Positions 2,527 through 48,760 of a DNA stretch of 64,000 nucleotides are shown here, one piece after another. The DNA lies in the NCBI GenBank assembly GCA_964235605.1, contig CAXSCR010000003.1, positions 112,275-176,274 on the forward strand. Direction: 5' to 3'. This stretch comes from an uncultured Cyclobacteriaceae bacterium. GTDB lineage: Bacteria; Bacteroidota; Bacteroidia; Cytophagales; Cyclobacteriaceae. The first letter of the stretch is position 1, and the number at the start of each line of letters is the position of its first letter. The notes under the pieces were generated by a model. It ran no database searches. It saw only the letters and a list, made by a program, of their open reading frames with translations, and was not told the origin of the DNA. The position numbers and the translations under genes were made by a program.

Positions 2527-3090
2527 TTATTTGTTATGACTTAATTGCTTTTGTTTTTTGAATTCTAATACCTCAGGTGTTTGGCGTTTCGTCACATCAA
2601 TTCGTTCATCCACTTTCTCTACCAATTTATCCTTACCGTAAATAAAATCTTGTCTTGCGTAATCCGTTGTTACCATGCGGTCTGTAAGAAATATGGCTTC
2701 TTTTGGACAAGCCTCCTCACATAACCCACAGAAAATACAACGCAACATATTGATCTCATACGTTGATGCATATTTTTCTTCTCGGTATAAATTTTCTTCA
2801 CCCTTTTGACGTTCTGCGGCAGTCATTGTAATAGCTTCTGCCGGACAAGAAACTGCACAAAGACCACAGGCCGTACAACGCTCTGCACCCTTTTCATCAC
2901 GCTTCAATACATGCTGACCTCTCCATATCTCACTAAACTCACGCGTCTTTTCAGGGTAGCGTACCGTGGCACTTTTCTTAAATAAATGTTTTATAGTTAT
3001 AGCAATGCCGGCAAGGACTGCAGGAAGATATATTCTTTCCCAGAAGTTCATCTCCTTGTCAACCACTACTTTCGATCTCTTTGTTAGCAT
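2527..3090 (-). CDS. nuoI: NADH-quinone oxidoreductase subunit I (2x 4Fe-4S ferredoxin)
   Basis: Two CxxCxxCxxxCP motifs are present: CTACGLCAVSCP and CIFCGLCEEACP. Confidence 0.95.
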   Translation of the reverse strand: MLTKRSKVVVDKEMNFWERIYLPAVLAGIAITIKHLFKKSATVRYPEKTREFSEIWRGQHVLKRDEKGAERCTACGLCAVSCPAEAITMTAAERQKGEENLYREEKYASTYEINMLRCIFCGLCEEACPKEAIFLTDRMVTTDYARQDFIYGKDKLVEKVDERIDVTKRQTPEVLEFKKQKQLSHNK

Positions 3091-3100
3091 TCTTTTCTTA

Positions 3101-3293
3101 GTTAATAGTTAATAGTTATCAGTTAATGGACCGATATCTACTTATATATTTGATAATTCCTTTATATCTAATGCTCAAACTCAATCATTCAATTCTCAAT
3201 CATTTTTGTAGTTCAGTACTTTTATTCTGTCATGCACTATTATTCACCCTTACTCAAACCACTATTAACTGATAACTTGTAACTATTAACTAT
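3101..3293. repeat. Heptad inverted-repeat element, nuoI|nuoH junction
   Basis: Left arm 3101-3127 is GTTAATAGTTAATAGTTATCAGTTAAT. Right arm 3261-3293 is ACTATTAACTGATAACTTGTAACTATTAACTAT, largely its reverse complement. The spacer is about 133 nt. The right arm contains the nuoH stop codon (3286-3288). Confidence 0.9.
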
Positions 3294-4326
3294 TTAAAGC
3301 AAGCACAAGTCCCGTAATTAATACATTCAATATGGACAATGGCAACAAGCCTTTCCAACCTAAATTCATCAGCTGGTCATAGCGGAAACGCGGGATAGTC
3401 CAGCGAACCCACATGAAGAAGAAGATGAAGAAGAATATCTTTGCAAAAAAGGCAAGGGATCCTAGTATGGTTAAAGTATTATGATCCAGTCCGAGATCAT
3501 TCATGAATGGGAAGTTATATCCGCCAAAATAAAGCGTAGCTATAACTGCTGATGAGATGAACATGTTGATGTATTCCGCAAACAGATAGAAACCAAGTTT
3601 CATACTGCTATATTCGGTATGATAGCCACCAATCAATTCGGTTTCGCACTCTGCAAGATCAAATGGTGTTCTGTTACATTCTGCGAATGCAGACACCAAA
3701 AATATTATAAAGCCGAGGGGCTGATACACTACATTCCAAAAATTCCAATCAGCACCGGCACCACCAGCCTGGCCTGCGCTTATCTCAGCTAAACTTAAAG
3801 TACCTGTCATCATTACAAAAGCGATAATGGAAAGGCCCATACCAATTTCATAACTGATCATTTGCGCTGAAGCACGAATGGCGCCCAATAATGAGAACTT
3901 GTTGTTCGAAGCCCAACCCCCTATCATAATACCATATACACCAATTGATACAACACCGAAGATATAAAGTATACCAATGTTAATATCCGTTATTTGTAAA
4001 TCGTACTCCGTATCTCCAATAACAATTGAGTTACCCCATGGAATAACTACACCAGTCATTAAAGCGGTAAGCATGGCGATGCAAGGGCCAGCAACAAAGA
4101 GAAACTTATTTGAAACATTGGGTATAATCTCTTCCTTCATGAAGAACTTTACACCATCAGCCAGTGGTTGAAGAATACCAAATGGGCCTGCACGATTTGG
4201 TCCTACCCTATCTTGTAGGAAGGCTGCCACTTTACGTTCTGCGTAAGTAGAATACATGGCAATAACCAACGTGATTACAAACACGGCCAGCACCAGAATA
4301 CTCTTATATATTAAAAAGTCAATCAT
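3286..4326 (-). CDS. nuoH: NADH-quinone oxidoreductase subunit H
   Basis: 346-aa polytopic protein with the NuoH/ND1 signature PFDLAECETELIGGYHTEYS. Confidence 0.95.
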   Translation of the reverse strand: MIDFLIYKSILVLAVFVITLVIAMYSTYAERKVAAFLQDRVGPNRAGPFGILQPLADGVKFFMKEEIIPNVSNKFLFVAGPCIAMLTALMTGVVIPWGNSIVIGDTEYDLQITDINIGILYIFGVVSIGVYGIMIGGWASNNKFSLLGAIRASAQMISYEIGMGLSIIAFVMMTGTLSLAEISAGQAGGAGADWNFWNVVYQPLGFIIFLVSAFAECNRTPFDLAECETELIGGYHTEYSSMKLGFYLFAEYINMFISSAVIATLYFGGYNFPFMNDLGLDHNTLTILGSLAFFAKIFFFIFFFMWVRWTIPRFRYDQLMNLGWKGLLPLSILNVLITGLVLALNS

Positions 4327-4329
4327 GTT

Positions 4330-5331
4330 TTAATTTGAAGGATTATGTTCAGGCAATTGTTTTCCTCGTTGATACTCGAGTTGTCTATCGATTTCAAGTT
4401 TTAATTTTTGAAGGTCGATCTTCTCATAATGATTCTGCGAAATAACAGAATTACGATCTATGTGACGTGGGCCTTCCACAGTCCAGTCGCTCATGTTTTT
4501 ATGATCGTAGCGACACGCGTTACATATAAATTCTTTCACTTCACTGTACTGATCTTTGCGAGCAGTTACACGAAGTACATCTTCACCTTTAGTCCAGAGC
4601 ACCACCTTACCACAGCACTTGTCACAGTTACGGTGGGCATCTAATGGCTTCGTGAACCACACGCGTGATTTAAATCTAAAAGTCTTATCAGTTAACGCCC
4701 CTACAGGACAAACATCAATCATGTTTCCAGAGAATTCATTTTCAACTGCTTTCTCAATATAGGTACTGATCTCTGACTTATCTCCCCTATTTAAAATACC
4801 ATGCACACGATTATCGGTAAGTTGATCGGCAACATAGGTACAACGGTAGCATAAAATGCAACGCGTCATGTGAAGTTTGATCTTATCACCAATATCTATT
4901 CTATCAAAAGTTCTTCTCTCCTCTTCGTAGCGTGTTTTAGCAGCGCCATGTTCGTAAGCCAGGTTTTGTAAATCACACTCACCAGCCTGATCGCACACCG
5001 GGCAATCAAGCGGGTGGTTTATCAATAAAAATTCTACCACACCTTTGCGGGCTTCCAACACTTCAGGTGAAATAAGGTTCTGCACCACCATTCCATCCAT
5101 AATAGGTGTACGGCAAGAGGCTACCAGCTTAGGCATAGGACGCGGATCTTTAGCAGATCCCTGCGTTACTTTAACAAGGCACACCCTACACTTACCACCA
5201 CTGTCCTTCAGGCTCGTGTAATAACACATAGCCGGAGGCACTGACGCGCCACCAATTTGCCGTGCAGCATTAAGGATACTTGTTCCATCCGGAACCTCTA
5301 CCTCTATGCCATCTATTGTTACTTTTGCCAT
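4330..5331 (-). CDS. nuoG: NADH-quinone oxidoreductase subunit G, short form (Fe-S N-terminal part only)
   Basis: Contains a 2Fe-2S motif (CYYTSLKDSGGKCRVC) and HPLDCPVCDQAGECDLQ. At 333 aa it lacks the molybdopterin-like C-terminal domain. Confidence 0.9.
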   Translation of the reverse strand: MAKVTIDGIEVEVPDGTSILNAARQIGGASVPPAMCYYTSLKDSGGKCRVCLVKVTQGSAKDPRPMPKLVASCRTPIMDGMVVQNLISPEVLEARKGVVEFLLINHPLDCPVCDQAGECDLQNLAYEHGAAKTRYEEERRTFDRIDIGDKIKLHMTRCILCYRCTYVADQLTDNRVHGILNRGDKSEISTYIEKAVENEFSGNMIDVCPVGALTDKTFRFKSRVWFTKPLDAHRNCDKCCGKVVLWTKGEDVLRVTARKDQYSEVKEFICNACRYDHKNMSDWTVEGPRHIDRNSVISQNHYEKIDLQKLKLEIDRQLEYQRGKQLPEHNPSN

Positions 5332-5337
5332 CGCTTT

Positions 5338-5370
5338 GTTAATAGTTAATAGTTATCAGTTAATAGTTAT
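5338..5370. repeat. Heptad repeat arm between nuoG start and the four-helix-bundle ORF stop
   Basis: Sequence is GTTAATAGTTAATAGTTATCAGTTAATAGTTAT. It supplies the TAA stop (5367-5369) of the 138-aa ORF and ends 6 nt from the nuoG ATG. Confidence 0.9.
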
Positions 5371-5783
5371 GGGCTAATCGGAATATCACCGTAATCTATT
5401 ACTGGTTCGTACACTTTATTCTGTGCCTTTGCTTTGGATAGATAATTAATAAATCCATTTAACAATGCTAAGCACTCTACAATCTCTTTTTTATAAATAT
5501 TCAGTTCGTCTTCTGAAATGTACTTTTCTTCTTTGGCGACAATTAGGTGATCAATAATTTCATACAATGATGCCCTGCTTTGTCTGCAATATTGAACATA
5601 CTCTTGATAATGATACCTCCCAAATCCTTCAGCTATGTTCGCTGTAACCGATCTTGAAGCCCTCGTTATCTGATCTACCAACCGAAACTTCTCTTCTAAT
5701 GGCAGCCGCTTTGTTAACGCGGAAAGTTTCATTCTCAAAGCTGCTGCTTTTTTCCAACAGTTAAGATCCTCGAAACTCTTCAT
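5367..5783 (-). CDS. Four-helix-bundle protein (23S rRNA intervening-sequence protein family, TIGR02436-like)
   Basis: Family-typical sequence: FEDLNCWKKA...QITRASRSVTANIAEGFGRYHYQEYVQYCRQSRASLYEIIDHL. It is inserted between nuoF and nuoG on the same strand. Confidence 0.85.
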   Translation of the reverse strand: MKSFEDLNCWKKAAALRMKLSALTKRLPLEEKFRLVDQITRASRSVTANIAEGFGRYHYQEYVQYCRQSRASLYEIIDHLIVAKEEKYISEDELNIYKKEIVECLALLNGFINYLSKAKAQNKVYEPVIDYGDIPISP

Positions 5784-5786
5784 TTA

Positions 5787-5969
5787 GTTAATGGTTAATG
5801 GTTAATGGTTATATGTTAATTGTGGTTACTAATATTTCTACTTGGTTTTAATCTATTTCAAGCAGGCTTAAATCTTTCTTCAATCTCATAAAGTTATGTC
5901 AGCAAAGTTTAACTATTAACTATTAACTATTAACTATTAACTATTAACTATTAACTATTAACTATTAAC
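5787..5969. repeat. Heptad inverted-repeat element, 4HB-ORF|nuoF junction, including 8.7 perfect tandem TTAACTA units
   Basis: Left arm 5787-5822 is (GTTAATG)n-like: GTTAATGGTTAATGGTTAATGGTTATATGTTAATTG. Right arm 5909-5969 is 8 full TTAACTA units plus TTAAC. The nuoF stop (5958-5960) lies inside the array. Confidence 0.95.
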
Positions 5970-7319
5970 AGTAACCAACTTCCCCGATCTAAACGGCTCC
6001 AAATGAAAGTGCTTCGGATCCATCACTTTCTCCGGGTACTTTACGTGGTATTCAAACTCTTCTCTGAAGTGACGGATTGCGCTGGCTACGGGCCAGGCTG
6101 CTGCATCACCTAGCGGACAGATTGTGTTGCCTTCAATTTTCTTGGCAACGTCTACCAGTAAATCAATATCACCCATGTGCCCGTGGCCATGCTCAAGACG
6201 ATGAAGTACTTTCTCCATCCAGCCTGTGCCTTCACGACACGGACTGCATTGACCACAAGATTCATGGTGATAGAAGCGTGAGAAGTTCCAGAGGTTACGA
6301 ACGATGCAAGCGCGTTCATCGTAAGCGATGAATCCACCTGAACCTAACATTGAACCACTTACAAAACCGCCTTCAGAGAGTGACTCGTAAGACATCAACC
6401 TCTTTTCTCCGGTAGCGGTTTTTAAAATTAAATCAGCAGGTAGAATTGGAACGGAAGAACCTCCAGGCACACATGCCTTTAGTTTACCACCATTCTGAAT
6501 ACCACCACACCATTCATCTGAATAAATAAATTCTTCTACAGACAAGCCAAGTTCAATTTCATAAACGCCAGGCTTGTTAATATTTCCACCCGCTGAAATC
6601 AGCTTCGTTCCAGTACTTCTTCCTATACCGATTTTCGCATATTCATCACCACCCATGTTTAGGATTGGAACAACAGCAGCAATCGTCTCTACATTATTTA
6701 CAACAGTTGGACTAGAATATAAACCTGCAATAGCGGGGAACGGTGGCTTCAATCTTGGAAGTCCACGTTTGCCTTCTAAAGATTCGAGTAAAGCAGTTTC
6801 CTCACCGCAGATGTAAGCACCAGCGCCTGGATGTACATACAGGTCTAATGAATACTCTGTACCTAAAATATTTTTACCAAGAAAACCAGCAGCGTAAGCT
6901 TCTTCAATTGCTTTTTCAAGAATGCGTACAATGTACATGTACTCACCACGAATGTATATGTATGATGCCTTGGCACCCAATGCAAAACTAGAAGTGATCA
7001 TGCCCTCAATCAAAAGGTGAGGGAGTTTTTCCATTAGGTAACGGTCTTTAAAAGTTCCAGGCTCACTCTCGTCTGCGTTGCAAACCAGATAACGTGGTTT
7101 CTCTGATTTACGATCGAGAAAACTCCATTTCATCCCAGCAGGAAAACCCGCTCCTCCTCTACCACGCAACCCAGACTTTTTCACTTCTTCCATAACAGAA
7201 TCAGGTGACATAGTCTTGAGCGCTTTTTCAACTGAAGCATAACCTCCCTTTTTCCGATAAACCTCGAAGGTCTGGATGCCAGGAACGTTAATGTGCTCGA
7301 GTAATAATTGTCTCCCCAT
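5958..7319 (-). CDS. nuoF: NADH-quinone oxidoreductase subunit F
   Basis: Contains GLRGRGGAGFPAGMKW (FMN/NADH site) and ESCGQCSPCREG (4Fe-4S). Confidence 0.95.
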   Translation of the reverse strand: MGRQLLLEHINVPGIQTFEVYRKKGGYASVEKALKTMSPDSVMEEVKKSGLRGRGGAGFPAGMKWSFLDRKSEKPRYLVCNADESEPGTFKDRYLMEKLPHLLIEGMITSSFALGAKASYIYIRGEYMYIVRILEKAIEEAYAAGFLGKNILGTEYSLDLYVHPGAGAYICGEETALLESLEGKRGLPRLKPPFPAIAGLYSSPTVVNNVETIAAVVPILNMGGDEYAKIGIGRSTGTKLISAGGNINKPGVYEIELGLSVEEFIYSDEWCGGIQNGGKLKACVPGGSSVPILPADLILKTATGEKRLMSYESLSEGGFVSGSMLGSGGFIAYDERACIVRNLWNFSRFYHHESCGQCSPCREGTGWMEKVLHRLEHGHGHMGDIDLLVDVAKKIEGNTICPLGDAAAWPVASAIRHFREEFEYHVKYPEKVMDPKHFHLEPFRSGKLVTVNS

Positions 7320-7324
7320 GGTTC

Positions 7325-7434
7325 GTTAATAGTTATCCGTTAATAGTTAATAGTTAATTGTTAATTGTTATACGTTAATTGTGTCATATCTTCTTCTTCC
7401 GCTCACTATTAACAATTAACCATTAACATCTAAC
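7325..7434. repeat. Heptad inverted-repeat element, nuoF|nuoE junction
   Basis: Left arm 7325-7380 is GTTAATAGTTATCCGTTAATAGTTAATAGTTAATTGTTAATTGTTATACGTTAATT. Right arm 7406-7434 is CTATTAACAATTAACCATTAACATCTAAC. The spacer is short, about 25 nt. The nuoE stop (7416-7418) lies inside the right arm. Confidence 0.9.
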
Positions 7435-7958
7435 TGAATATTCTCTCTCATATATGATGATCTTTTATCCGCTGCTCCCAACTTATCAATCAATGTGTCA
7501 ACTTTCTCTGGTGTTAAATTTTCATAGTAGTTAGCGCCACATTGTAACATGGGTGCAGTGCCACATGAGCCTAGACATTCAACTGTTTTCAAAGTGAACA
7601 TACCATCAGCAGAAGTCTCACCATCTTTAATGTTCAAGCGTTTTTCTATATGTTCAACAATATCTTCAGCGCCGCGTAACCAACATGGCGACGTACGGCA
7701 AACCTCGATCAAACACTTGCCTACAGGCTTTAGATTATACATTGAATAGAAACTTGCTACTTCATAAACCTCAATCGGCTTTATGTTTAGCAAAGAAGCT
7801 ACATAATCCATTGTTGCTGGACTCAACCATCCATCAAATTCAGACTGCGCCACATGTAACAAAGGCAACAATGCAGACTTTTCTTTTCCTACCGGATAGC
7901 GCGCGATAATTTTCTTTGCCAGGGTTAATGTTTCATCTCTGAATTTTACCACTTCCAT
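7416..7958 (-). CDS. nuoE: NADH-quinone oxidoreductase subunit E
   Basis: Thioredoxin-like 2Fe-2S motifs: CRTSPC...CLGSCGTAP. Confidence 0.95.
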   Translation of the reverse strand: MEVVKFRDETLTLAKKIIARYPVGKEKSALLPLLHVAQSEFDGWLSPATMDYVASLLNIKPIEVYEVASFYSMYNLKPVGKCLIEVCRTSPCWLRGAEDIVEHIEKRLNIKDGETSADGMFTLKTVECLGSCGTAPMLQCGANYYENLTPEKVDTLIDKLGAADKRSSYMRENIQLDVNG

Positions 7959-7964
7959 TCCTTT

Positions 7965-8132
7965 ATCAGTTATCAGTTATCAGTTAATAGTTAATAGTTA
8001 ATAGTTATCGTCTAACCTTAAATGCTTCACCTTAGCTTTTCTATTTATACTACTATCCCTATTCTAAATCTTTGCTACACTTATTCACTAACCCTATCCC
8101 ACAATTAACAATTAACTATTAACTATTAACTA
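7965..8132. repeat. Heptad inverted-repeat element, nuoE|nuoD junction
   Basis: Left arm 7965-8010 is (TATCAGT)3(TAATAGT)3. Right arm 8101-8132 is ACAATTAACAATTAACTATTAACTATTAACTA. The spacer is about 90 nt. Confidence 0.9.
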
Positions 8133-8134
8133 CC

Positions 8135-9352
8135 CTAAGCATCAAGCTCCCCTGCAATCACATTCATACTACTCATCGTCAGAATCGCATCTGACAACAT
8201 TGAGCCTTTAATCATTTCAGGATATGCTTGGTAATAAATAAAGCATGGTCTTCTGAAATGCAAACGGAATGGTGCTCTTCCTCCATCGCTGATTAAATAA
8301 AATCCAAGCTCACCATTACCACCTTCAACCGCGTGATATACTTCACCTTTTGGAACATCGGTTTCGCCCATAACAATTTTAAAGTGATAGATGAGTGCTT
8401 CCATATTATTGTAAACATCTTCTTTCGGAGGGAGATAAAATTCTGGAACTGAGGCATGGAACGGACCTTCAGGAAGTTTCGCTATGGCTTGTTTAATAAT
8501 ACTCAAACTCTGCCACATTTCTTCTTGACGTACCATGAAGCGATCATACACATCGCCATTAGTGCCTACCGGGATAATGAAATCAAAATCTTCATACGAT
8601 GAATATGGATTCATAACCCGTACGTCGTAATCAACACCTGCTGCCCTGAGGTTCGGGCCTGAAAAGCTATAACTAAGTGCCATCTCGGGTGTAATGCCGC
8701 CTACACCAATGGTTCTATCCATGAAAATCCGGTTGCGTTTCAACAGGTTCTCAAATTCTCTTAACACTTTAGGAAAATTATCCAGGAAGTCGTTAATCTT
8801 CTTCCACGCTTTTGGTGTGAAGTCGCGTTCAAAACCACCGATTCTACCGAGGTTGGTTGTTAAACGTGCACCACAAATTTCTTCGTAGATCTCATATACA
8901 AGTTCACGTTGCTGGAACAAATAAACAAACCCAGTAAGTGCGCCGGTATCAACACCAATTACTGCATTACAAACCAAGTGATCAGTGATACGCGCCAACT
9001 CCATAACGATAACACGTAAATATTGTACGCGCTTCGGAATTTCGACACCTATTAATTTTTCGACTGTCATGTGCCAGCCAATGTTATTGATTGGTGAGGA
9101 GCAGTAATTCATTCTATCTGTTAGCGGCGTAATCTGATAGAAAGGCCTGCGCTCTGCAAGTTTTTCGAAAGCACGGTGTATGTATCCGATAGTTGGTTCA
9201 GCCTCCACGATAATCTCGCCATCCATCTTCAGAACGTTCTGAAAAATACCATGGGTTGCAGGGTGTGTTGGCCCCAGGTTGAGATAGGAGTATTCCTTCT
9301 CTGCGGGTGTTACCGTTCCATTCGTGCTAATATTTTTACCTATATCCTCCAT
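8135..9352 (-). CDS. nuoD: NADH-quinone oxidoreductase subunit D
   Basis: 405 aa with an N-terminal [11 protein letters not shown] motif, in the position between nuoC and nuoE. Confidence 0.95.
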
Positions 9353-9354
9353 GA

Positions 9355-9870
9355 TTATCTTCCAAACATTGCGTTGTCTTTATCTTCACGAGTTTGATCT
9401 TCCAATGGGTATTCTTTACGCATTGGGAATATTATCATCTCATCTACATTCAGAATCCGCTTCAAGTTAGGGTGACCTATGAAATTAACGCCGAAGAAAT
9501 CATAGGTTTCACGTTCTAACCAATTTGCTGCAGGAAATACCGTAGTTAATGTCGGTGTTACCAGATTCTCCATGGGCAAATATATCTTGAGTCTTATTTG
9601 CTGATTAGCTACCAGGTTATGAAGCTGATACATCACGGCTATCTGATTCAGATCAGGATAATGAATTCCGCAAAGTGTTGTAAGGTATTGAAACTGTGCC
9701 GTAGGATGATTGTATAGATACCGAATGATGTCTACAACCTTTTCCTTTTTTAACGTGATCGTTAAAAAGTTATAGGGTGTTTCAATAAGAAGTACCTGAT
9801 CTTCGTACTTCTCTTTAAGAATTGTTATAATATTATCGTGTTCTGTTACTTCGGGCTTATTCGATTCCAT
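9355..9870 (-). CDS. nuoC: NADH-quinone oxidoreductase subunit C
   Basis: Contains the ERETYDFFG motif. It overlaps nuoB by 14 nt. Confidence 0.9.
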
Positions 9871-10414
9871 ATTTATTAAGCATGGCCTTATATTCCGGAG
9901 AATCTCTCCTTCTCAATGATTCAGTTTCAACCAAGTGTTGTATTTTAATTATTCCATCAATAATTTGTTCTGGGCGGGGTGGGCAGCCTGGTACATAAAC
10001 ATCTACAGGAATAATTCTATCGATACCCTGTAAAACACTATAGGTGTCAAATATTCCACCGCTTGAAGCACAGGCTCCAACCGAAAGTACCCACCGTGGT
10101 TCTGCCATCTGCTCATATACCTGGCGAAGTATAGGACCCATTTTCTTAGCGATGGTACCCATAACCATTAACAAATCTGCCTGACGTGGTGAAAAGCTTA
10201 AACGCTCAGAACCAAAACGGGCAAGATCATAATGTGCGCCCATTGTGGCCATGAACTCAATGCCGCAGCATGAAGTAGCAAATGGTAAGGGCCAAATCGA
10301 ATTTTTTCGGGCAAGTCCAACAGCTTTTTCAAGGCTCGTGGCAAAAAAGCCAGCGCCTTCTAGGCCATCTGGTCTCGCTGATACACTTACATTATTTAAT
10401 GATACTGGTTCCAT
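9857..10414 (-). CDS. nuoB: NADH-quinone oxidoreductase subunit B
   Basis: Contains the N2 cluster ligand motifs SCCGIEFMA and VPGCPPRPE. Confidence 0.95.
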
Positions 10415-10415
10415 A

Positions 10416-10796
10416 TTACTCCCACTTCAAAGCGCCTCTCTTTATTATATAGAAAAATCCAACTAACAAACATGCAATGAATACGATCATTTCAATAAAA
10501 ATTGCAATACCATTCTCCTTAAGAAGATCCCTAAAGAGCACCGCCCACGGATACATGAATATTACCTCCACATCAAACAATACAAATAAGATGGCTACCA
10601 GGAAGTACTTGATAGAGAATGGTATACGCGCATTACCCCGAGGTTCAATACCGCACTCGAAAGAATCAAGTTTGATTTTACCCTTTCTCTTGGGACCCAG
10701 CATATGGGTAGATACCATGGTTAACCCCACAAAACCAGCCGCCACAAAAAACATTAGCGCGATTGGTAAATACTCCACTAAATATTGCTCATCCAT
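10416..10796 (-). CDS. nuoA: NADH-quinone oxidoreductase subunit A
   Basis: 126 aa with three TM segments and the [12 protein letters not shown] motif. It is the first gene of the operon. Confidence 0.9.
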
Positions 10797-11008
10797 AATG
10801 ACTAGGGTAAGGACAAAGCCTTTTCGGCCTCAAAGATCAAAATTTTTTGGTTTTTACCTTCCATTTCGAAGAATCTATTTTCACTATTTCATAACAGTGT
10901 AAGTTTTAAATGGTTCTTCGTATACTATAAATCGACCAGCTCCAAGAAAAATAAATCTCTTGTAGCCAATGCCCCGAGGGGTATTTTTGGAATAAAATCT
11001 GACGGTAT

Positions 11009-46718: not shown

Positions 46719-47129
46719 TCAGTGCGCTGATATCCACTCTTCACCTTCTTCAAAAACTTCTTTCTTCCAAATAGGGGCTTTTGCTTTAAGTGTATCAATA
46801 ACAAATTGACACGCTTCAAAGGAGGCCTTTCTATGTGCTGTGGAAATTGCTACCACTACAGAAACTTCACCGGGCTTTAAATGACCGATACGGTGACATA
46901 TTGCCCATCCCTTAACCATCCATCGTTGGAGTGCTTCGTCTACTATTTTTTGAATTTCAGATACGGCCATTGATTCATAGGCCTCATATTCTAGCCTTAC
47001 AACACCTTTACCCGAAGCGGCAGCATTTCTTACCGTACCAATGAATACATTAACAGCTCCGGCTTCAGGGTGGCCGGCTTCTTTGATGACCTGTTGAACG
47101 TCAATTGGCTGGGGGGTTATGGTTATCAT
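46719..47129 (-). CDS. moaE: Molybdopterin synthase catalytic subunit MoaE
   Basis: Contains FIGTVRN, LEYEAYESMA, HRIGHLKPGEVSVVVAISTAHRKASFEA and PIWKKE. Confidence 0.9.
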   Translation of the reverse strand: MITITPQPIDVQQVIKEAGHPEAGAVNVFIGTVRNAAASGKGVVRLEYEAYESMAVSEIQKIVDEALQRWMVKGWAICHRIGHLKPGEVSVVVAISTAHRKASFEACQFVIDTLKAKAPIWKKEVFEEGEEWISAH

Positions 47130-47228
47130 TGTTGTTAATTGCTATCCGTTAATTGTTATCCGTTAATTGTTAATGTTAATCGTTAATAATCGTTAATCGT
47201 TATCAGTTAATTGTTGTCTGTTAATGTG
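47130..47228. repeat. Solitary degenerate heptad (GTTAATn) repeat tract immediately 5' of moaE
   Basis: Sequence is TGTTGTTAATTGCTATCCGTTAATTGTTATCCGTTAATTGTTAATGTTAATCGTTAATAATCGTTAATCGTTATCAGTTAATTGTTGTCTGTTAATGTG. It has the same motif family as the nuo junctions. No complementary arm was seen before dnaA. Confidence 0.85.
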
Positions 47229-47338
47229 AAAACTTGGTCTGCCTATAGAAATGGTTGGGATAGAGATTAAGTTTTGGGTGATTAGTCTCAAATTGATCTA
47301 AAATGAAATGGGGATTGCTACGCTTTTTTGAAAGAAAA

Positions 47339-48760
47339 TTAAGCAACACGCAGCTTTAATTTCTTTCCTAATTCTTCTACGGAAGCTTTAAAATTAGGAT
47401 CAGTCTTCATCATGTCTTCAACTGACTCGAGTGCGTGGATTACTGTGCTGTGATCACGACCACCAAAATTTCCTCCAATTAACGCAAGGGTAAGTTGGGT
47501 GTAACGCTTGCAGAAGTACATTGCTACCTGACGTGGAATAACGATTTCACGTTTCTTAACCTTGCCTTTCATGGCTTCGAGGTTAATTTTAAAATACTCT
47601 GATACTGTTTTTTGAATAAAATCAACGCTTACATCAGACTGAATTTCTTTGATAATATTTTTTAAGACCTCTTTCGCTAACTCCAAATTAATGTCCTTCT
47701 TTAATAAAGTAGCATGAAAGATCATGGAGTTCATTACACCTTCCATGTCACGCAAATTTGTGTCGACGCTGTAAGCAAGATATTCTGATACTTCAGTTGG
47801 AATTTCAATACCATCAGCAAGCATCTTTCTATTAATGATCGCTAATTTAGTTTCGAAGTCAGGTTCTTGTAAATCGGCAGTCAACCCCCATTTAAATCTA
47901 GACAGCAATCGTTCTTGGAAGCCTTTAAGATCGCGAGGAGGACAATCACTGGTCATAATAACTTGTTTGCCAGACTGATGAAGTTGATTGAAGATATGGA
48001 AAAACATTTCCTGGGTCTTCTCTCTCCCAGCAAGAAACTGTACATCATCAAGTATGAGCAGATCTACCTGTAAATAGAAATTTTGAAAATCTTGAAGTCT
48101 ATGGTTTTGTAACGCATTGAGAAACTGATTGGTGAAATCATTTTGATCAACATACAAAACTACCTTGCTCGGCATGTTGTTCTTAATCTCATTACCGATG
48201 GCTTGAACCAAGTGCGTTTTACCAACACCTACTCCGCCATAAAGCATCAACGGATTAAAAGAAGTAATGCCTGGTTTCTTAGCAACTGCCAATCCGGCTG
48301 ATCTTGCCAATCGATTGCAATCGCCTTCTACGAAATTGTCAAATGTATATGTGTTATTTAATCTTGAGTTAACAGTGAGCGGATTTAGCGCTTTAAAAGT
48401 AAAGGGTGTGTACTCATCAGAGAAGCCCCCATTGTTCATGGCGCTGCGCCTTGTGCCACCACCATTCGGATAGTTTACTGCCAATGGCGGATTGCTTGTG
48501 TTTCCGCTGTCAACAATAACAGAGTACTCAAGTCGACCCGTTGCACCTAAGACAGTATGAATTGCTTTTTTAAGAACAGGTACATAGTTATCTTCTAACC
48601 ATTCGTAAAAAAATTGAGAAGGCACTTGAATAGTAAGTACGTCTCCATCAACACGTAAAGGCGATATAGGCCTAAACCACGTATTGAAATTTTCGTCTCC
48701 TACGTTTTCACGTATTACTTCGAGACAGTCATTCCATACGGTGCCGCAGCTTACTTCCAT
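47339..48760 (-). CDS. dnaA: Chromosomal replication initiator protein DnaA
   Basis: AAA+ Walker A GGVGVGKTHL, LLILDDVQFL, and the C-terminal DNA-binding region GGRDHSTVIHA. Confidence 0.95.
   Translation of the reverse strand: MEVSCGTVWNDCLEVIRENVGDENFNTWFRPISPLRVDGDVLTIQVPSQFFYEWLEDNYVPVLKKAIHTVLGATGRLEYSVIVDSGNTSNPPLAVNYPNGGGTRRSAMNNGGFSDEYTPFTFKALNPLTVNSRLNNTYTFDNFVEGDCNRLARSAGLAVAKKPGITSFNPLMLYGGVGVGKTHLVQAIGNEIKNNMPSKVVLYVDQNDFTNQFLNALQNHRLQDFQNFYLQVDLLILDDVQFLAGREKTQEMFFHIFNQLHQSGKQVIMTSDCPPRDLKGFQERLLSRFKWGLTADLQEPDFETKLAIINRKMLADGIEIPTEVSEYLAYSVDTNLRDMEGVMNSMIFHATLLKKDINLELAKEVLKNIIKEIQSDVSVDFIQKTVSEYFKINLEAMKGKVKKREIVIPRQVAMYFCKRYTQLTLALIGGNFGGRDHSTVIHALESVEDMMKTDPNFKASVEELGKKLKLRVA

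Follow-up and report, generated by a model that had tools for sequence, protein, structure and literature searches.

In an uncultured Cyclobacteriaceae bacterium, a gene for a four-helix-bundle protein of the 23S rRNA intervening sequence family lies between nuoF and nuoG and is enclosed by inverted tandem arrays of a 7-nt unit. The gene was found in a window of 64,000 nt (GCA_964235605.1, contig CAXSCR010000003.1, positions 112,275-176,274 of the forward strand), the whole stretch of DNA analysed here, where the open reading frame (ORF), of 138 residues, and both its neighbours are encoded on the minus strand. Intervening sequences (IVSs) insert in helix 9, 25 or 45 of 23S rRNA, and RNase III excises them without religation. 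Our preferred reading, to which we give a probability of roughly 0.55, is that the stretch from nuoF through the ORF to nuoG is an IVS-type hairpin cassette set in an mRNA spacer, with a PF05635 gene in the loop and inverted tandem arrays of 7-nt units (heptads) as the arms. Gene and bracket form one recurrent unit. The cassette has been inherited over the long term between nuoF and nuoG with its protein under purifying selection, and its arms vary quickly in copy number. The arms probably pair in the nuo transcript, which, by analogy with rRNA, would then be processed by RNase III. The parts of the cassette and the two genes that flank it are as follows, in the order of transcription and with repeat units read on the sense strand.

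5958-7319, minus strand: nuoF, 453 aa (TIGR01959, 590 bits; Pfam Complex1_51K and NADH_4Fe-4S).
5909-5969, minus strand: 5' arm, (GTTAATA) x 8.7 (Tandem Repeats Finder, 100% matches, score 122).
5821-5908, minus strand: 88-nt loop of an ORF-less hairpin ahead of the ORF, between the 5' arm and the inner 3'-type arm.
5787-5820, minus strand: inner 3'-type arm, (TAACCAT) x 4.9 (Tandem Repeats Finder), ending 3 nt ahead of the ORF start.
5367-5783, minus strand: four-helix-bundle ORF, 138 aa, PF05635/TIGR02436.
5338-5369, minus strand: outer 3' arm, (TAACTAT/TAACTGA) x 4.6 (Tandem Repeats Finder), holding the ORF stop and ending 6 nt before the nuoG ATG.
4330-5331, minus strand: short nuoG, 333 aa, with only the N-terminal Fe-S domains (Pfam Fer2_4, NADH-G_4Fe-4S_3, Fer4_Nqo3).

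Arrays were called with Tandem Repeats Finder at a period of 7. The original prediction, made from the sequence alone, had described the ORF as bracketed by heptad arms of which the outer ones are mutually complementary, and this proved correct: the arms at 5338-5369 and 5910-5941 are 94% complementary over 32 nt. Complementarity was also found between 5785-5823 and 5912-5950 (82% over 39 nt), and a further match around the ORF reached 86% over 42 nt. The array coordinates likewise confirmed that both the stop codon of the ORF and the sequence 3 nt ahead of its start derive from the repeats, the stop (5367-5369) lying within the array at 5338-5369 and the start ATG (5781-5783) lying 3 nt off the array at 5787-5820. 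Read in the sense of the mRNA, the array-bearing nuo spacers of the window obey one common rule, which is stop-(GTTANNN)n-loop (25-133 nt)-(TAACNNN)n-ATG. Under this rule, 5787-5969 is a full ORF-less hairpin, with a 5' arm of 9 units, the 88-nt loop and a 3' arm of 5 units; the ORF comes after it and is closed by the second 3'-type arm at 5338-5369. The length of the 5' arm at 5909-5969 would allow simultaneous pairing with both downstream arms; in the minimum free energy (MFE) fold, 5338-5369 is paired with the outer half of this arm and 5787-5820 with the inner half. The sense RNA of 5325-5985 folds with an MFE of -167 kcal/mol (z = -7.1) into a stem that encloses the ORF. Similarity of the 88-nt loop to the ORF did not exceed that of shuffled controls, and matches of the heptad hairpins to Rfam families were at chance level only.

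Membership of the ORF protein in the PF05635/TIGR02436 four-helix-bundle (23S rRNA IVS protein) family is secure, since the scores of hidden Markov models (HMMs) and the predicted fold agree. The protein, which contains QITRASRSVTANIAEGFGRY, scored 108.4 bits against PF05635 (cut-off 33.8), with profile positions 1-106 of 106 covered, and 97.7 bits against TIGR02436 (cut-off 24). PF05635 was its sole Pfam match; no HUH/Y1 transposase domain and no known catalytic domain was detected. An AlphaFold2 model of the monomer (predicted local distance difference test score 87) has helices at residues 8-26, 29-54, 59-85 and 91-120. In Foldseek comparisons the model resembled XCC0516 (2GSC; E = 6e-7, target-normalised template modelling [TM] score 0.92-0.95) and BT_0352 (2RLD; TM 0.83-0.88) and, more distantly, Avd (4DWL, 8UB7; target-normalised TM about 0.8-0.88, sequence identity about 10%); 2GSC was also found by phmmer (E = 1e-8). 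The assignment to the four-helix-bundle/IVS family in the original prediction was therefore upheld by the HMMs and by the predicted likeness to 2GSC, 2RLD and Avd. No other member of the family turned up in the 64-kb window with tblastn or phmmer, and an exact look-up returned no identical protein record.

Homologues of the protein numbered 1839, the closest with 64-78% identity. Three close homologues (P0005, P0007 and P0060; 69-75% identity) were sampled for gene context, one of the three assemblies being a metagenome-assembled genome (MAG) labelled Cyclobacteriaceae, and all three genes lay between nuoF and nuoG. The same position is occupied by the ORF of locus L089 (74% identity), and that of L110 (53%) lies just upstream of nuoG. 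At the carrier loci the nuoF and nuoG proteins are 82-91% identical to those of the window, and the ORF is 69-75% identical, a level comparable to that of nuoC and nuoE. The ORF differs from its orthologues by pN values of 0.15-0.22 and pS values of 0.72-0.96, synonymous sites being saturated. The protein is under strong purifying selection, and the low pN together with saturated pS implies that it has long been kept by selection between nuoF and nuoG. The orthologues also carry a clade-specific conserved C-terminal E-P..Y motif.

The bracket accompanies the gene at these loci. The spacers of the nuo-linked orthologues consist of heptads, (GTTANNN)n upstream and (TAACNNN)n downstream, and in L004, L007, L089 and L110 the bracket takes its simple form: (GTTANNN)n, ATG, ORF, stop, (TAACNNN)n, nuoG ATG. 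In these four loci the short spacers contain little but heptads; ahead of the ORF these are all of the 5' type and behind it all of the 3' type, which we refer to as the split-arm rule. The nearest relative, L001, has an additional hairpin upstream of the ORF like that of the window. With an identical encoded protein, the 3' arm measures 86 nt in L004, 107 nt in L005 and 80 nt in L006, so that the arrays must change length fast. In L004 the coding region runs into the array, the C-terminus of the protein (...ITNNEQRITNNG) being encoded by heptads (L004 4417-4456).

Scanning metagenomes with the window protein gave 80 loci, 71 of them distinct, and the family statistics below were computed on 66-71 distinct loci. 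All but two of the metagenome loci are outside nuo operons, with 34-59% identity, and in about 85% the ORF is co-oriented with both neighbours. The genes are found between sdhA and sdhB (7-8 loci), in polysaccharide, paa and hdr operons and elsewhere, and the neighbours of the main family clusters are operon genes. GTTA occurs at 17 per kb upstream of the ORF and TAAC at 19 per kb downstream, against a background of 3-4 per kb and about 6 per kb for the opposite orientation. Within 120 nt of the ORF ends, the density of strict heptad arrays is 18 times that in the rest of the same loci, and an array is present in 53% of ORF-adjacent spacers compared with 18% of the other spacers (p = 4e-6). 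The arms of a locus are more complementary to each other than are arms paired across loci (15.7 versus 9.1, p = 6e-11), and more so inverted than in direct orientation. The repeat unit is lineage-specific and yet matched within each locus, as in GGTTATA/TATAACC, GTTCTTG/CAAGAAC and GGATTTT/AAATCC. The sdhA-sdhB junction is a second conserved nesting site with GTTA/TAAC arms (L091, L093, L098, L099, L103, L105, L106 and L111); at both junctions the upstream gene encodes a flavoprotein and the downstream gene opens with a 2Fe-2S domain.

An independent annotated set, 12 plasmid loci from Cyanobacteria, Riemerella and Azospirillum, showed the same arrangement with other units. Clearly inverted heptad arms were present in 8 of the 12, with units such as GGAGATA/TATCTCC, GGTTTAA/TTAAACC, GGGAAAA/TTTTCCC, ACAGGTG/CTGTCAC and GGAGTAG/TCCCTAC, and those of Calothrix (L176) were approximately inverted. 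Two of the three family ORFs examined on viral contigs also had inverted heptad arms. On cyanobacterial plasmids we noted family genes in cas operons (cmr2-cmr3, cas6-cas4), between a parA-like gene and parB, and antisense between nrdB and nrdA. The coordinates of the cyanobacterial plasmid genes are given here.

L170, 1492-1848: plasmid family gene.
L174, 1501-1860: plasmid family gene.
L177, 1195-1563: plasmid family gene.
L172, 1492-1854: plasmid family gene.
L180, 1195-1563: plasmid family gene.

The design of the cassette is, by analogy, that of the 23S IVSs that bear an S23p gene, hosted here by the intercistronic spacer of an mRNA operon. At one locus of Azospirillum lipoferum 4B AZO_p2 (L178), the whole 2.7-kb stretch is 23S rRNA (Rfam, 2135 bits) and carries no annotated feature. 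It holds a family ORF, without an obvious ATG start, that begins about 140 nt past the conserved TAATAGCTCACTGGT segment, and a 5' heptad arm that begins about 80 nt past it. This arm (1139-1180) reads GAGGACG GATGACA GAGGACG GAGGACA, and the array on the other side (1573-1608) reads CCGTCCT CTGTCTT CTGTCAT CCGTCTT; the GAGGACG-type and CCGTCCT-type arms pair in the MFE fold. The Coxiella IVS has a 28-bp terminal stem and is excised by RNase III, and it carries 2-3 strain-variable GACAGAT heptamers just before the S23p ATG, with the 5' cut of RNase III at the first heptamer (PMC4990558). Since heptamers occur in both Azospirillum and Coxiella, heptad arms are part of genuine S23p-bearing IVSs, and these two cases are the strongest support for the IVS analogy. 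They also bear out the earlier suggestion that the architecture around the nuo ORF mirrors that of rRNA IVSs, through the paired heptad arms of the Azospirillum 23S ORF and the Coxiella heptamers at the RNase III site. Rfam detected no rRNA in the 64-kb window, and no 23S rRNA motifs were found in the 168 loci L001-L168.

Like the S23p-bearing IVSs of Coxiella burnetii, Leptospira and Azospirillum, the nuo cassette has a PF05635 ORF in the loop and complementary termini. In both, the termini are made of tandem heptamers whose copy number varies, between strains in Coxiella and between loci in the nuo cassette. Unlike the rRNA IVSs, the nuo cassette resides in a protein-coding operon, between nuoF and nuoG, and not in helix 45 of 23S rRNA; its arms are AT-rich with a GTTA core, and it has an added inner arm and an 88-nt loop ahead of the ORF. 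In the nuo transcript, the 5' (GUUAAUA)n arm would pair with the 3' (UAACNNN)n arms, and this pairing would loop out the ORF and move the nuoF stop codon beside the nuoG start. RNase III would be likely to act on the resulting stem as it does on those of rRNA IVSs; cleavage has been shown for the latter, whereas for the nuo cassette it is proposed by analogy. In this manner the insertion might be shielded from the host transcript or removed from it by processing, and the operon would stay functional.

Several observations weigh against this reading. Pairing is imperfect, the GTTA core alone being constant, and the arms of L110 match at only about 5 of 7 positions. G:U and A:C mismatches were counted 56 and 49 times, respectively (p = 0.56), revealing no strand preference, and the mismatch counts therefore do not single out a constraint at the level of RNA, or RNA over DNA. 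Duplex energies are asymmetric in favour of the sense strand (43 versus 21), in what is a weaker test, confounded by flank composition. Cleavage of such an mRNA spacer by RNase III is unreported in the searchable literature. Strong purifying selection acts on the nuo ORF, in contrast with the ORF of the Coxiella IVS, which is reported to be decaying and probably untranslated. Since heptad hairpins without an ORF are common in these genomes, and are found also between nuoF and nuoG where the ORF is absent, the arms cannot be called specific to the ORF. Finally, the bracket is not universal. In L174 (Pseudanabaena galeata pPg_01) the arrays are direct, (AAAAGCT) x 16 upstream at about 1385-1500 and (AAAAGCC) x 10 downstream at about 1861-1965, and at some family loci an array is present on one side only. 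The expectation that other copies of the family gene would be flanked by heptads is largely borne out in other genomes, where such flanks are frequent. Plasmids alpha and gamma of Nostoc PCC 7120 encode an identical protein (WP_010994075.1; L169 1498-1848 and L175 1204-1554) that adjoins insertion sequence transposases; both loci have a 3' (CTCTGCC)n array only, and a related copy on a viral contig (L185) has both arms.

The ORF-bearing cassette is one of several heptad elements in the window. The minus-strand nuo operon, which runs from nuoA to nuoI, spans 2527-10800. Its further genes and arrays, and one array outside it, are listed here.

2527-3090, minus strand: nuoI, operon member.
3099-3294, minus strand: ORF-less heptad hairpin at the nuoH-nuoI junction, arms 3099-3127 and 3261-3294, 133-nt loop.
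3286-4326, minus strand: nuoH, operon member.
7325-7434, minus strand: ORF-less heptad hairpin at the nuoE-nuoF junction, arms 7325-7382 and 7408-7434, 25-nt loop; sense MFE -30.0 kcal/mol, z = -5.0.
7416-7958, minus strand: nuoE, operon member.
7963-8132, minus strand: ORF-less heptad hairpin at the nuoD-nuoE junction, arms 7963-8009 and 8104-8132, 94-nt loop; sense MFE -37.7 kcal/mol, z = -4.2.
8135-9352, minus strand: nuoD, operon member, as is nuoC.
47132-47225, minus strand: lone TAAC-type array without a partner arm (Tandem Repeats Finder), abutting the moaE start codon, downstream of dnaA.

The window contains 34 occurrences of the motif GTTANNNGTTANNNGTTA, where chance would give 0.02, and all of them are at the nuo junctions or at 47.1 kb. 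GTTA arrays, in 5' arms, supply the stop codons of nuoE (7416-7434) and nuoF (5958-5969). The main unit is TAACTAT, and TAACTGA units are present at 7963-8009, 5338-5369 and 3099-3127. The lone TAAC-type array is enclosed by moaE (46719-47129, minus strand) and dnaA (47339-48760, minus strand), and a replication origin may be close to 46719-48760.

Heptad hairpins also occupy the nuoF-nuoG spacer of genomes that have no ORF there. A NuoF scan of species-representative genomes yielded 40 Bacteroidota nuo loci, and an ORF of the window type was present between nuoF and nuoG in none of the 40. In L019, L020, L025, L026 and L036 the spacer is filled by an ORF-less heptad hairpin with a lineage-specific unit, from which it follows that the hairpin needs no ORF. 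In L009, a Cyclobacteriaceae MAG with 87% NuoF identity, the 55-nt spacer has neither ORF nor heptads; other genomes keep ORF-less hairpins with different units. The spacer is an insertion hot spot in Bacteroidota. That of L017 contains a degraded PF05635 gene (8407-8568) with inverted heptads of its own, and other inserts at this site are a PDDEXK_3 (GxxExxY-like) gene, an ORF6N gene, a GDSL lipase and several unannotated genes; judging by eye from the sequences, an unannotated insert protein of about 280 aa looks common to three genomes. There are no heptad arms around the PDDEXK_3 and ORF6N inserts, so an inserted gene does not have arms as a matter of course. The insert coordinates are listed here.

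L040, 8465-8842: nuoF-nuoG insert.
L046, 8339-8854: nuoF-nuoG insert.
L031, 8345-9178: nuoF-nuoG insert.
L042, 8394-9266: nuoF-nuoG insert.
L045, 11117-11938: nuoF-nuoG insert.
L032, 2354-3535: nuoF-nuoG insert.

These hairpins lend some weight to a different explanation, which we consider unlikely: the arrays would be generic signals between cistrons, of the short tandemly repeated repetitive (STRR)/TAACTGA type, for instance translation-initiation leaders or mRNA stabilisers, and the ORF an ordinary conserved operon gene between two of them. It would account for ORF-less hairpins at three other nuo junctions of the window and at nuoF-nuoG sites without the ORF, and for the 9-18% of other spacers that have heptad arrays. 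Like TAACTGA repeats (PMC4679880), TAAC-type arrays lie directly against start codons, and the ORF is syntenic and under purifying selection, as an ordinary operon gene might be. However, arrays are about three-fold enriched at ORF-adjacent over other spacers, the split-arm rule holds in L004, L007, L089 and L110, and the same bracket is found with different units in cyanobacteria and in a 23S rRNA gene, which needs no leader.

A role of the arms in DNA has to be kept as a live rival because of the imperfect arms, the direct arrays at one locus and the unbiased mismatches, improbable as we judge it on the whole. The arms would then be portable homology or terminal repeats that move the ORF among hairpins by recombination or an unknown type of transposition, with ORF-less hairpins as landing pads and the RNA stem as incidental. 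The arrays are indeed inverted around the ORF like terminal repeats, one GTTA/TAAC unit family is used across the arrays of the window, and likewise within L001 and within L007, and the ORF family is found in many unrelated operons. Presence and absence among close relatives (L009 lacks ORF and arrays at 87% nuoF identity), a mismatch spectrum with no strand bias and the mutual similarity of ORF-less loops within L001 also fit. On the other hand, the ORF has no associated recombinase or transposase; its nuo-linked copies, in which synonymous sites are saturated, are old and have been inherited vertically; no recent transfer event was observed; and arms of 30-60 AT-rich bp give homologous recombination little length to work on.

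The original prediction had gone further and proposed that the ORF-less elements are non-autonomous derivatives of an autonomous ORF-bearing element, much as miniature inverted-repeat transposable elements are deletion derivatives. The architecture common to both kinds of element would agree with this, as would one match between the nuoH-nuoI loop and nt ~252-345 of the ORF, whose Smith-Waterman score of 26 was reached by none of 2000 random window segments. That match, however, is one weak AT-rich hit among many comparisons and was not confirmed by nhmmer, and the remaining ORF-less loops scored at chance level. Searches for ORF remnants in the loops of the ORF-less hairpins of the window came back blank with tblastn and phmmer, and also with nhmmer, for which five orthologous genes made up the profile. 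No known catalytic domain is present in the protein, and ORF-less hairpins far outnumber ORFs and exist without an ORF nearby. The derivative model thus found no backing and seems to us very unlikely. The ORF-less loops within L001 are similar to each other, with the common ends GTTAATnGTGGG ... TAAGACG-TAAC, and this likeness suggests that ORF-less hairpins are copies of one another rather than decayed ORF elements. Loops at L001 2319-2404, 3859-3943 and 5453-5527 and at 8010-8103 of the window are alike in starting with GTGGG and in having TAAGACG ahead of the 3' arm; by eye, the loops of L001 and that at 8010-8103 also look poor in C on the sense strand. The ORF-less neighbours of the cassette are the same kind of hairpin without cargo.

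The protein might instead serve complex I as a lineage-specific accessory factor, its position in the operon reflecting that function. Conserved synteny, purifying selection and the clade-specific E-P..Y motif speak for this idea, but it can be set aside as highly improbable, since the ORF is absent from 40 of 40 Bacteroidota nuo loci of species-representative genomes and close family members are found in sdh, cas, par, paa and polysaccharide operons and in rRNA. A complex I accessory subunit was thus rejected on the distribution of the ORF, and a RAYT-like transposase on domain content (PF05635 only).

We return to the IVS-type cassette and its relation to known systems. TAACTGA repeats are intergenic tandem 7-nt units of Beggiatoaceae, Cyanobacteria and some Bacteroidetes whose forward array ends just upstream of a start codon (MacGregor 2015, PMC4679880). 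The window arrays resemble these and the STRR repeats in being intergenic and of period 7, in that the forward ones stop a few nt short of a start codon, and in having stop codons in all frames; the 3'-type arms include literal TAACTGA units. In contrast, the arrays described here are inverted, hairpin-forming pairs enriched around PF05635 ORFs, whereas the published work deals with direct repeats, with a single inverted set in the BOGUAY genome, and makes no link to four-helix-bundle genes (PMC4679880). A hypothetical protein with 29 paralogues, BOGUAY_0693, is co-distributed with the TAACTGA repeats (PMC4679880, Supplemental Table 7).

Repetitive extragenic palindromic (REP) sequences, the hairpins they form (REPINs) and their associated tyrosine transposases (RAYTs) offer a second parallel, in that a small gene is flanked by inverted copies of a short repeat that is also dispersed as nearby spacer hairpins. 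The nuo ORF differs in encoding a four-helix bundle and not an HUH/Y1 transposase, and its repeats are tandem heptads and not single palindromes. A third parallel is Avd, the accessory protein of diversity-generating retroelements, which has the same fold according to Foldseek and the predicted model, and a resemblance of PF05635 to Avd has been pointed out in a review (PMC10053308). Unlike avd, the ORF is adjoined by nuoF and nuoG and by no reverse transcriptase or template and variable repeats. PF05635 has also been listed as CRISPR-associated in a large survey (PMC10910872), possibly because family genes nest inside cas operons.

In a wider and more tentative version of the cassette reading, on the doubtful side in our own estimate, heptad hairpins would colonise intercistronic spacers and rRNA helices alike, and PF05635 genes and the STRR/TAACTGA heptamers of Bacteroidota, Cyanobacteria and Beggiatoaceae would be one system. 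An Avd-like protein encoded in some of the loops may bind, maintain or spread the hairpins, and the rRNA IVS would be merely one habitat.

The PF05635 family, rRNA IVSs and intergenic heptamer repeats are each already known. PF05635 is a large family without an assigned function, and genomes of Bacteroidota and Cyanobacteria carry many copies of it. The heptamer sequences of the cyanobacterial STRRs were reportedly described by Mazel et al. in 1990, and to our knowledge the heptamer tandem repeats of Bacteroidota and Cyanobacteria have been without explanation since about that year. In the searchable literature, a link between this family and heptamer repeats was found only in the note on Coxiella, and there was no description of frequent nesting of the gene in inverted heptad arms, nor of the same cassette in mRNA operons and rRNA, nor of a repeat type common to the cassette and to nearby ORF-less heptad hairpins. 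Inverted heptad arms around the gene were found here in mRNA operons, on plasmids, on phage-like contigs and in a 23S rRNA gene. This nesting joins three puzzles: the function of PF05635, the heptamer repeats and the origin of S23p-bearing IVSs. In practice, a PF05635 gene met with in a cas, nuo or sdh operon is probably a nested cassette and not a functional partner of the genes around it.

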